Below are positions 23,137-29,133 of a stretch of 29,133 nt of DNA, piece after piece (within the stretch, counting starts at the first letter, position 1; each line of letters starts with the position of its first letter). Both the position numbers and the translations under genes were made by a program. Origin of the DNA: a virus (Duplodnaviria > Caudoviricetes). The notes beneath the pieces are model-generated. The model was not told the origin of the DNA, did not search any database, and was given only the letters and a program-made list of their open reading frames with translations. Location of the stretch: positions 1 to 29,133 of the IMG/VR virus record IMGVR_UViG_3300016667_000262; one strand, 5' to 3'.

Positions 23137-23500
23137 TATTAAGTCTAATATCTACATTAACCTTATTATCCTTAATAGGAGGTAAATACAATATCTTAGT
23201 CTTGGTAATTAAATTCTTCTTTCTAAGACGAGATAAGATAGCTTCATGACTATTCCTACTAAAAGCACTTTGTAAGTCTTTAGCAACAGCCTCTCTAATT
23301 TGTTTTCTACTTTGTGTGTGGAATAATAGAAGATTTGCAGCGTCATCTCCTAAATGTTGATACGTATTATATATTAAAGCCATTTTACTCAAGACTTTAA
23401 TCTCAACAGGACCCAATTTATCCTTACCTAATAAAGGATTAACAAGAGTATAGTATTGCTCTATAATCTTATCACGAGTATTATTAATTTCTATTTTCAT
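23117..23500 (-). CDS. Putative winged-helix DNA-binding protein, first gene of the late block
   Basis: 127 aa, basic; SRNSHEAILSRLRKKNLI resembles a wHTH recognition helix and wing. Confidence 0.5.
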   Translation of the reverse strand: MKIEINNTRDKIIEQYYTLVNPLLGKDKLGPVEIKVLSKMALIYNTYQHLGDDAANLLLFHTQSRKQIREAVAKDLQSAFSRNSHEAILSRLRKKNLITKTKILYLPPIKDNKVNVDIRLNIVNSDE

Positions 23501-23914: not shown

Positions 23915-24035
23915 TGTAATTTTAAAAAAAAATTTTTTTAGAAAATTTTAGAAAATTGTTTTGGGGATGTGTGAGAGTGGACCTCCTCCAAAAAGCCCAC
24001 TCACCCTAAATATTGCGGGGCAAGGTGCCCTGCCT
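23915..24035. other. Strand-switch element: A/T tracts followed by GC-rich inverted repeats
   Basis: A9T7 tract and duplicated TTTTAGAAAATT, then TTTTGGGG/CTCCAAAA, GAGTGG/CCACTC and GCGGGGCA/TGCCCTGC, between the divergent gene blocks. Confidence 0.5.
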
Positions 24036-24064
24036 AGATTATTAATAAATTAATAAATAAAATT

Positions 24065-24889: not shown

Positions 24890-24945
24890 CATTGCATGGT
24901 TTAAAGGACATCTCTTCGTGAGCTCTGTCCTACCATGTTTCCCAC

Positions 24946-25102
24946 ATCTCAATGCACAACTCTTTAGAAAAGTTGTAATAGTTTTCCTAGGCACAGTAAG
25001 GTTCGCAACCTTATGTCTTTTAAGTGTGACTTTCGTATAGACAAACACTTACATTCGTCAGCCTATAATGGAATTAACTATTACAACTCAGTGCAAAGAG
25101 AT
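24946..25102 (+). ncRNA. Hairpin cassette 1 (conserved closing stem, variable interior)
   Basis: ATCTC-AA-TGCAC...AGTTGTAATAGTT pairs with AACTATTACAACT..GTGCA-AA-GAGAT; internal hairpins TAAGGTT/AACCTTA and TAAGTGT/ACACTTA. Strand inferred from flanking genes. Confidence 0.6.
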
Positions 25103-25232
25103 TATTCATTAAGATTTATTCTTTGGAAGCAAAGACTATTAAGGAATCATAGTTAACATTCATATTGTCTGATGTATCAGAAATGTTCTACCTTTTTACC
25201 TATGGCTATAAACTCTAAGAATAAATCTTTTT

Positions 25233-25349
25233 ATCTCAATGCAATAAGTTGTAAGAAATACCTGGTTTACAGCCTTCGTGTACTAAGCAGATCACGATTT
25301 AAACTGTAATAATATTTGCCAGGCAGACTCACAACTATTGCAAAGAGAT
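25233..25349 (+). ncRNA. Hairpin cassette 2
   Basis: ATCTC-AA-TGCAAT-A-AGTTGT pairs with ACAACT-ATTGCA-AA-GAGAT; inner stems CCTGG/CCAGG, TTACAG/CTGTAA and TCGTG/CACGA. Confidence 0.6.
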
Positions 25350-25350
25350 T

Positions 25351-25480
25351 ATCTCAATGCACAAAATTGTAATCTTAGAAACATAGGGTATGAACCTGTG
25401 GTGAAGATCAAAGATTAGTTCTTGAGTCATACTATAAGGAACTTTTCTCTTCTGTAGATTACAATTAAGTGCAAAGAGAT
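25351..25480 (+). ncRNA. Hairpin cassette 3
   Basis: ATCTC-AA-TGCAC-AA-AATTGTAATCT pairs with AGATTACAATT-AA-GTGCA-AA-GAGAT; abuts cassette 2 with a 1-nt gap. Confidence 0.6.
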
Positions 25481-25936
25481 TATTCTAAACAATAACCTAG
25501 GTAATCCAAGGTAACTTAAAACACGTTGTTTTGAGTTTTAAAATCAAGAGGTAATATACCTCATTATGTACCCAATCTTCAATTTTTAACACTTACACTC
25601 ATAAGATTTGACCGTCTTATGGGTAAAAATGTAAGAAATTGCTGCAATTTGTAATCCGCAAGGATTACTGGGCTAAATAAGTCTTGGTCAACAAATAGAT
25701 AATTATTTGTTAGATTTATGATGCCTATTGCAGCAAGTTAAGTAGAACTGTAAAATCTGCTACTGTTTAAGTCTGTTCAGTTACCACAGATTAGTTGATT
25801 GATAGTGATTATCCACTTGATATTAGCGTAAAAAACTCAATAACTTTCCAAGATGTTGAGGACACCAGTTTCTATAATACTTCAAGTATCCACGCAAAAG
25901 GAGAAAGAGTAATGAGAGAAGATTATAGTTTTAGGT

Positions 25937-26498
25937 GTAAAACACAAATTAGGTTTGCTCAATAAAAATTAATTAAACTATTTAAACGATAAAGACAGTA
26001 TATTAATTTTCCTAATTAGTTGAAAAACAGTTATTCTGATGTTCCTATTGTTGTAGGTTTAGTAAGAATAGTTTGTAATCGTTAGCGTATTTATACGAAA
26101 GGTAGCTCCTTTAATTACAAACAACAGTGTGTCCTAAGTACTTAGGTAATTAAAACTTCTCAATATTGAGAAAGAGAGTAGATTTTATTAGGAAGAAAGA
26201 AGTAATTAATCTTTCGTTTTGTATCTCTCACACACTGTTTTTTAAAAAGAATTAAGTAAAACACAAAAAGAAGAATAGAGTAACTCTGAAGCTATCCAAT
26301 TAGTAAGAGGTATGGTAAATCTTCTATCAAAGGAAATATTGCATGAAAGCCTTTGATATATTAAAAAATCAGTAGTTGATGCAACAACTAGATTGGATAT
26401 AATTCAGGAGTTACCGAGCCTGAATTTACTAATGCAGCCAAGTATTTATACTTGAGAGTCCAAAGCCTCTATAAATTTGCAGATGGGTAAAACACAAA
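25937..26498 (+). repeat. Three dispersed exact copies of GTAAAACACAAA
   Basis: Copies at 25937-25948, 26256-26267 and 26487-26498. Confidence 0.8.
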
Positions 26499-26528
26499 CA
26501 ATTAACTAACAATCAAATAAAAAACACA

Positions 26529-28696: not shown

Positions 28697-28705
28697 TCAA
28701 TTAAT

Positions 28706-28737
28706 AGAGAGTAGTAGAAATACTACTCTCTTAATTT
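28706..28737 (+). terminator. Terminator-like hairpin with GAAA tetraloop
   Basis: AGAGAGTAGTA-GAAA-TACTACTCTCT-TAATTT; perfect 11-bp stem with a weak U tract. Confidence 0.65.
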
Positions 28738-28742
28738 AAAAC

Positions 28743-28860
28743 AAATAATGGCGTATGTATGAATAAGAATTTAATTTTATTATTAAATTACCATTGCTAG
28801 CAGTTGATCTCTTTGTATTATAAATACAAGATGGGTGTTACATTCTACATAACATTATTT
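28743..28860 (+). ncRNA. Closed multibranch stem-loop abutting the tRNA-like element
   Basis: AAATAATG/CATTATTT, TATGTA/TACATA and GAAT/ATTC close a domain containing AATTTAAT/ATTAAATT and TTGTATT/AATACAA. Confidence 0.4.
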
Positions 28861-28929
28861 AGTCAGGTAGTTTAATTAAAAAACAGTGGAGATTTCCTCA
28901 AGATACAGGGTTATTACCTGTCCTGACTA
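28861..28929 (+). pseudogene. Degenerate tRNA / tRNA-like element
   Basis: Acceptor AGTCAGG/CCTGACT-A, D stem GTTT/AAAC and T stem ACAGG/CCTGT are intact. The T loop is GTTATTA, the D loop lacks GG, and the anticodon arm is shortened with no readable anticodon. Confidence 0.65.
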
Positions 28930-28963
28930 CAGCATAATTATTAACAACTTAAATTATAAAACA

Positions 28964-29026
28964 ATGGATGAAGATGAAATTCCAATGGAAGTAGGTATTA
29001 CTGATATTGATACAGGAATACTTTAA
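28964..29026 (+). CDS. Unannotated 20-aa acidic micro-ORF between the tRNA-like elements
   Basis: MDEDEIPMEVGITDIDTGIL*, preceded by AAATTATAAAACA, similar to the leaders of the other plus-strand genes. Confidence 0.4.
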   Translation: MDEDEIPMEVGITDIDTGIL

Positions 29027-29033
29027 AAAAAAC

Positions 29034-29133
29034 AGTCAGGTGGCGAAATTGGCAAACGCTTGGTCTTATCAACCTATTAATAAACCTCTCCGAGGTTGTG
29101 AACCCGTGTGGGATACAGGTTCGAATCCTGTCC
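29034..29133 (+). tRNA. Atypical tRNA(-like) gene with expanded central region, truncated at the window end; isotype not assignable
   Basis: AGTCAGG-TG-GCG-AAATTGGCAAA-CGC class II-type D arm, canonical ACAGG-TTCGAAT-CCTGT T arm and start of the 3' acceptor (CC). About 55 nt lie between the D and T arms, with extra hairpins. Confidence 0.65.

Follow-up and report, generated by a model that had tools for sequence, protein, structure and literature searches.

The closest described systems are the type-P1 twister ribozymes with an optional P5 (RF03160, clan CL00120). Relatives of the locus analyzed here share the features of these ribozymes, reviewed in PMC5408937, in the right order: a UAA motif, a P2 of 4 bp, a P4 stem closed by an L4 loop containing UCCCAA, both pseudoknots, and a GAGGG motif. 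The three units found at this locus keep P2, P5, and their spacing; they differ from the described twisters in standing in tandem and lacking the catalytic core. In the branch of twisters to which they are related, T2 is CC/GG, the structure contained in P5 spans 25 to 365 nucleotides and is exchangeable and under selection, and 29 of the 186 units listed carry a further module in L4. A second point of comparison is provided by self-cleaving ribozymes linked to phage genes: according to the accessible portions of PMC6765202 and PMC10085705, twister, hatchet, and pistol ribozymes cluster and probably process a long transcript. The present locus is similar in that several ribozyme classes occur together in phage DNA. 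It differs in that non-coding inserts are framed rather than genes flanked, and in that the frames outlast predicted catalysis. The third comparison concerns RNA anti-CRISPRs, which include Racrs (PMC10651486) and rAcrIIA1, a mimic of sgRNA (10.64898/2026.06.03.729762). Like these, the elements analyzed here are small structured phage RNAs that could be decoys for host defence proteins.

The window, that is the whole stretch of DNA that was analyzed (29,133 nucleotides), is a contig of a crAss-like phage. The genes encoding the major capsid, portal, and terminase proteins occupy the minus strand as far as about position 23500, and the closest named matches of the capsid protein belong to Crassvirales (31–33%). 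Small plus-strand genes follow, and then a gene-free block (24890–26528), which was found for the most part in freshwater sequencing runs. By analogy with the genome layout presented in the available part of PMC10136315, the block would belong to the early region. A scan for sigma-70 promoters gave matches at chance level (18 versus 16.5), and ARAGORN detected no tRNA in the window. At the divergence point (23917–24040), A/T tracts precede a G/C-rich motif that is kept in close relatives and has similar counterparts in gut crAss-like phages; this motif is a candidate early promoter or origin. A second short non-coding stretch (28700–29035) contains hairpins and precedes a tRNA-like frame (29035–29133), cut by the window end, in which intact D and T arms surround a long unrelated insert. 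Frames of the same type occur in L056 (5286–5396) and L110 (69–161). In the non-coding regions of relatives, hatchet, pistol, twister, and tRNA-like RNAs adjoin the motifs of the array, which are co-oriented 305 to 2, a count that includes the handle matches used for orienting. Hatchet ribozymes with variable interiors were present in 5 of 20 loci scanned (L027 at 1781–1913, L031, L034, L042, and L055), and a weak pistol match was found in one such region (L109, 28–85). A short hairpin followed by an A-rich leader lies right before the ATG of the first gene after the block in L018, L019, L023, and L198, and is absent from the window.

Table 1. Features of the gene-free block (positions in the window).
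Feature	Position	Strand	Basis or remarks
Conserved hairpin, anchor of the orthologous site	24895..24938	+	Near-identical in L010, L023, and L213
Unit 1, reduced twister frame, 157 nt	24946..25102	+	Both-end pattern, fold, intact-twister model
Unit 1, closing helix	24946-50/25098-102		
Unit 1, P2	24953-56/25092-95		
Unit 1, P4 remnant	24958-70		
Unit 1, P5	24971-79/25080-88		
Unit 1, payload, 100 nt	24980-25079		
Fourth module, different closing stem	25110..25232	+	Moves as a block
Unit 2, most reduced frame (without P4), 117 nt	25233..25349	+	Both-end pattern, fold
Unit 2, P2	25240-43/25339-42		
Unit 2, P5	25247-52/25331-36		Payload of about 78 nt
Unit 3, reduced frame, 130 nt	25351..25480	+	Both-end pattern, fold, intact-twister model
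Unit 3, P2	25358-61/25470-73		
Unit 3, P5	25365-73/25458-66		Payload contains two hairpins
Further multi-hairpin module	25488..25829	+	Homologues in L101, L161, L194, and L295
Second frame with variable insert	25829..25945	+	Twister-like parts in non-standard order (L4, P2, GAGGG, P1, UAA)
Canonical type-P1 twister	26426..26490	+	Rfam RF03160; TGCA/TGCA P2 as in the units

The initial annotation had proposed that three units with paired ends enclose unrelated interiors. A two-ended 11-nucleotide pattern gave exactly three matches, at the positions of these units, and no match in 100 shuffles. Units 1, 2, and 3 folded better than all of 200 shuffles (z scores of −5.1, −5.75, and −5.12, respectively). 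In a context of 1.07 kb, each unit paired its own ends (p of 0.65–0.98 for the outer helix and 0.90–1.0 for the TGCA helix), and cross-pairing between the three units had a p of at most 0.01. Two sequence differences had been regarded as compensatory. The exchange of AGTTGT/ACAACT for AATTGT/ACAATT is a true compensatory change, whereas TGCAC/GTGCA and TGCAAT/ATTGCA result from a different extension of the stem in unit 2, without substitution. The interiors, which had been considered to be themselves folded, were only weakly so when taken alone (z scores of −1.7, −2.2, and −1.0). The two hairpin loops of unit 3 are complementary over 6 nucleotides (25388–93 with 25427–32) and are predicted to kiss. 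Searches of the whole window with Rfam at gathering scores returned no match; with E values up to 5, units 1 to 3 gave weak noise of the miRNA type only. A coding role was rejected on two grounds: the only frames overlapping the units have 40 to 47 codons, and the modules undergo shuffling.

In IMG/VR, the two window ends in their exact form were not found around interiors of 81 to 141 nucleotides, and GenBank phages contained no match to units 1 to 3 or to intact forms. Close relatives, identified through a neighbouring protein, had variant ends. A pattern for the 3′ arm listed 120 and 123 stretches in two collections, with estimated totals of about 310 and 330, and at least 186 distinct units were recognized in relatives. 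Of these, 114 have an L4 loop, 29 bear an additional module within L4, and 43 are short units, 10 of which failed a stricter filter, leaving 33 reduced forms. The 114 units with an L4 loop have the architecture UAA-P2-CC-P4-UCCCAA-GG-P4′-P5(insert)-P2′-GAGGG, comprising successively UAA, UGCA, CC, UUCCCAAGG enclosed by a stem of 5 bp, the insert enclosed by a stem of 9 bp, UGCA, and GAGGG. This order maps onto the twister consensus of Rfam as P2, T2, P4/L4, the optional P5, P2′, the general-base G, and T1. In the 29 units with the extra module (L033, L036, L041, L060, and others), the module is conserved and adds two stems that likewise carry inserts; the two loops of the module are reminiscent of interleaved T-loops, which recognize the elbow of tRNA.

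A descriptor of the ordered twister features (P2, P4, L4, T1, T2, and GAGGG) fitted 113 of the 114 intact forms listed, 106 of which had the UAA. All five pairs of P4 were changed on both sides among 20 sequences, and none of 500 shuffles reached the covariation score. For T1, the six loci with GA-GUG on the 3′ side all carried the matching UCAC in L4. Two of the five loci with GGA had the matching UCC, two were mismatched, and one was a short form; the single locus with GAG was mismatched. When the 5′ half only was used for scanning, the matching downstream pseudoknot triplet was present in 104 of 111 distinct copies. P5 covaried too. The intact relatives depart from known twisters by an invariant CC/GG at T2 in place of the conserved GC and by one additional base in L4. 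Their P1 is weak (62.5% paired) yet above shuffles; P1 has been reported to be dispensable in twisters in the part of bioRxiv 10.1101/2024.07.11.603121 that was available. The Rfam twister models gave no match on P5-bearing intact units in 13, 1, 20, and 20 loci. The intact relatives are an uncatalogued branch of twister ribozymes of crAss-like phages and are predicted from their sequence to self-cleave at the U-A step. Literature searches yielded no account of this branch or of its disarmed frames; ZWD and phage RNA catalogues may hold the motifs.

A homologue of the window capsid protein was encoded by 20 of the 33 carrier records (9 of the 13 near-complete ones). Fifteen of 16 long records hold a single copy and the other holds two, so the three-unit array is not the rule. 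GTDB genomes contained 19 matches to the 5′ half, five of them with the P4 signature of the family, all in metagenome-assembled genomes; these five probably come from binned phage contigs, and the remaining 14 were judged to be chance matches. Two family members are located in Bacteroidota bins, L273 (a 117,852-base contig of a Chitinophagaceae bin) and L274 (a Sediminibacterium bin). They provide a weak hint of the host, and are possibly mis-binned phage contigs.

A covariance model built from 20 intact forms retrieved unit 1 (E of 0.0026), unit 3 (E of 0.008), and the canonical twister as its top matches in the window, unit 1 ranking first; unit 2 on its own was not matched by this model. 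The TGCA/TGCA helix of the three units is the twister P2, identical to that of the Rfam twister at 26426, the upper stem corresponds to the optional P5, whose loop accommodates the payload. The handle, which had been proposed to be a new shared stem for a nuclease or a binding protein, is therefore derived from the P2 and P5 of a known ribozyme class. The catalytic core has been lost. In comparison with L037, L4 is deleted in unit 1; P4 is absent from units 2 and 3; T1 and T2 have no partners left in any of the units; and in all three AAGAG replaces GAGGG, with loss of the general-base G after P2, and CAA replaces UAA, with loss of the U-A cleavage site. In the twisters tested in PMC5408937 and bioRxiv 10.1101/2024.07.11.603121, cleavage is reduced or abolished when L4, a pseudoknot, or the general base is lost. 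For this reason, units 1 to 3 are predicted to be inactive: they are reduced copies without a catalytic core and are likely not to cleave. They descend from the twister fold but fall outside the twister family itself.

Among the matches listed, the 5′ flank of the 33 reduced forms pairs with the T1 purines freed by loss of the pseudoknot (100, 100, 97, and 88% at the four positions). A plain helix therefore replaces the pseudoknot. This rebuilt closing helix shows covariation of its own, and the reduced frames span phages whose capsid proteins display from 93% to 27% identity with that of the window (L019, L039). The homologues of the upstream hairpin in L010, L023, and L213 are each followed by the same reduced 5′ handle. 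The set L099, L256, L029, L045, L157, L164, L209, and L230 comprises P5 helices without the twister halves as well as reduced frames in which P2 varies in a compensatory manner (TGTA/TACA, TGGA/TCCA).

The inserts are diverse, the 179 payloads listed forming at least 142 groups. The payload of unit 1 displays 92% identity over 78 nucleotides with that of the intact twister L037, and P5 and payload of unit 2 display 90% identity over about 100 nucleotides with those of the intact twister L030, including one compensatory pair. The same insert is thus present in a frame predicted to be active and in a disarmed frame, which would allow cleavage and cargo function to be told apart. More generally, 21 of the 30 multi-member payload families among the matches listed occur in more than one frame class, the class labels being assigned by pattern with a few nested cases mislabelled. 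Certain inserts were also encountered within different stems or without any frame. Conservation of the folds was assessed in 21 homologous payload pairs harboring 144 substitutions, the reference structure being that predicted for one member, with an artificial stem added as a clamp. Compensatory pairs numbered 20 versus 3.1 ± 1.6 expected from 500 permutations, and broken pairs 13 versus 48.8 ± 4.5. Nine of the 30 families were left out since they contained no pair with 75–98.5% identity and similar length, and unit 2, missed by the arm pattern, was added by hand for this analysis only. The folds of the inserts look to be kept by selection.

The proposal that the payloads might be guides or match host sequences is unlikely because selection acts on the payload fold and not on complementary sequence; no meaningful match was found in 302 Bacteroidota genomes. 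A host origin or an antisense role was rejected, as only scattered short matches were obtained, in 12 of 151 genomes of one set and 9 of 151 of the other (best E of 0.001). Anticodon-like loops of 7 nucleotides were more numerous than expected (11 versus 3.2), only three having a pyrimidine at position 32, and loop-loop complements of at least 6 nucleotides were present in 5 of 176 payloads versus 0 to 3. Anticodon mimicry and kissing loops are, by these counts, weak as a general rule for the payloads. No shared motif or binding partner was found among the inserts.

These observations bear on the possibility that self-cleavage is the only useful property of the family, P5 tolerating any hairpin and the units of the window being decaying copies in a recombination-prone island. 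P5 is optional and variable and has little effect on cleavage, as reported in the accessible text of bioRxiv 10.1101/2024.07.11.603121, most of the units listed are intact (114 of 186), and most genomes have one copy. However, the inserts keep their folds by compensatory change, persist where the core has been lost, and are transferred from one frame to another, and the reduced frames rebuild a covarying closing helix in phages as distant as indicated by their capsid proteins. We consider this explanation to be unlikely.

The rebuilt helix raises another possibility, that a host nuclease of the RNase III type has replaced self-cleavage, the closing stem acting as a processing site for the release of small RNAs. 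RNase III needs a helix of about 20–25 bp. The closed helix has this length, interrupted by small loops, and is rebuilt in all 33 reduced forms among the matches listed. The geometry of the internal loop is, however, not kept. The AA/AA loop had been taken to be invariant, which holds in this genome only: among the reduced forms listed, the corresponding positions are base-paired in 16 of 33, the rest being AA/GA or AA/AA, and AA is found on the 3′ side in only 9 of 33. In addition, a contig of 563 nucleotides from RNA library X16 extends without interruption from a 3′ arm across the fourth module into the following 5′ arm, although it may represent a precursor or DNA. Processing of this type would be compatible with the explanation that we prefer, but appears doubtful.

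P5 could alternatively mimic a CRISPR repeat of Bacteroidota, or a repeat:anti-repeat duplex, and jam Cas13b or Cas9. Arrays with repeats of 36 or 47 nucleotides starting with GTTGT and ending with TACAAC are present in 3 of 401 Bacteroidota genomes, the P5 helix exists without the twister halves, and the Racrs and the sgRNA mimic provide precedents within what their sources describe. Against this, only 5–6 terminal bases are common to P5 and some of the repeats, there is no full repeat or sgRNA architecture, and P5 begins with GTTGTA in 77 of the 111 unbiased copies from the 5′-half scan and otherwise covaries freely. The inserts are also far more diverse than RNA anti-CRISPRs and much longer than a repeat interior. 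The Rfam CRISPR families gave no match at E values up to 5, and units 1 to 3 contain no full CRISPR repeat and no regular unstructured spacers, the inserts being folded. An anti-CRISPR role of P5 is quite improbable.

A constant handle combined with a variable payload, as initially suggested, was supported by comparison of strains, in which copy number, order, and payload differ and homologues covary. Among contigs from four DNA runs, unit 3 was seen in first position, and unit 1 was either absent or exchanged for 228 other bases. In run X4, unit 3 is followed by the fourth module and then by a new cassette; in run X2, unit 1 is missing from one contig. Other inserts (120 and 122 nucleotides) occupy the same arms in runs X2 and X5, the 122-nucleotide insert of X2 being located in the arms of unit 2. 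Three unrelated inserts occur at one site, behind the same upstream hairpin, in the window, L023, and L213. Chimeric assembly at the shared arms may account for some of the rearrangements in the DNA runs, but several long independent contigs agree.

The neighbouring modules are mobile too. The gap of 130 nucleotides between units 1 and 2 is occupied by the fourth module, which is placed elsewhere in DNA runs X2, X3, and X4 and in RNA run X16, and the core of which is present in L042, L145, L165, and L185. The module at 25488 was found in contigs of RNA libraries X16, X19, and X20. RNA-library contigs from four studies contained the neighbouring modules in other orders, strand, ends, and level not being readable from contigs; none of the three window payloads was covered in the four RNA runs, an absence that carries no weight. 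The pseudoknot triplet of the frame at 25829 covaries (CCC/GGG, TCC/GGA, CTC/GAG, CAC/GTG, and TGC/GCA) in 20 complete copies among 22 listed, and this frame is also present in Suoliviridae of the human gut. It could be a non-circular permutation of the twister, a form that was not detected in PMC10085705. The twister at 26426 scored 54.7 bits (E of 4.6e-11), below the gathering score of RF03160 (67.2); its predicted cleavage site in the transcript follows position 26430.

The 16 carrier records examined (13 at least 90% complete) encode no tyrosine integrase (PF00589, detected in 14 of 14 controls) and no reverse transcriptase (PF00078), the enzyme of retrons and related RNA arrays. RecT, ERF, Rad52, and RtcB, the latter for circularization, were each found in 0 of 16 carriers. 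TROVE (PF05731), considered for a system of Y RNA with Ro60, was not found in the 16 phages and is present in a Bacteroides control, and could therefore be provided by the host. Divergent versions of all these proteins could escape detection. General recombination at the arms probably moves the cassettes. Integron attC cassettes are variable tandem modules whose number and order depend on the strain. The array is similar in these respects, but no integrase was found, there are no genes inside, selection is at the RNA level, and the hairpins enclose the cargo rather than separating it. Single-stranded DNA hairpin cassettes moved by a dedicated, integron-like site-specific recombinase, which the initial annotation had envisaged, would account for changes of order and content at the arms but are very improbable, since neither integrase nor reverse transcriptase was found in the 16 carriers, the ends do not have the attC arrangement as commonly defined, and inserts move between different stems too. 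An RNA-level function is also suggested by the presence of G-U pairs, by the covarying pseudoknots, and by the strictly uniform orientation of the motifs.

The explanation that we prefer, and consider to be the probable one, is that units 1 to 3 are former twister P2/P5 frames surrounding exchangeable folded inserts, which would most likely act as protein-binding decoys in early infection. The block would be transcribed as a single early RNA, the motifs being co-oriented, and the intact neighbouring ribozymes would trim the transcript at about positions 25937 and 26430. The closing helix would insulate the fold of each insert, and crossovers in 20–40 nucleotides of shared frame sequence would exchange the inserts. 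A frame with an active neighbour could lose catalysis and still isolate the fold of its insert and supply homology. The inserts are likely to be the target of selection because they are conserved in structure, diverse, and kept after loss of the ribozyme. Binding of host proteins by the inserts as decoys is, taken by itself, a tentative proposal. An extension of this proposal, which is somewhat unlikely, is an RNA display of crAss-like phages, in which active and former ribozyme frames would present a recombining library of at least 142 families that neutralize host proteins involved in defence or RNA handling. Such a display, if it exists, would be an RNA counterpart of the variable islands of anti-defence genes, in which the fold of a ribozyme has been domesticated to serve as a carrier devoid of catalysis.

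The role of P5 in twisters is stated to be unclear in the available part of bioRxiv 10.1101/2024.07.11.603121, and the locus offers a direct test of this role. If the inserts are not effectors, the intact relatives still constitute an uncatalogued twister branch that is worth adding to Rfam. If they are effectors, the locus would provide a natural example of the conversion of a ribozyme into a scaffold, and an abundant order of phages would possess a large group of exchangeable non-coding weapons that has been overlooked.
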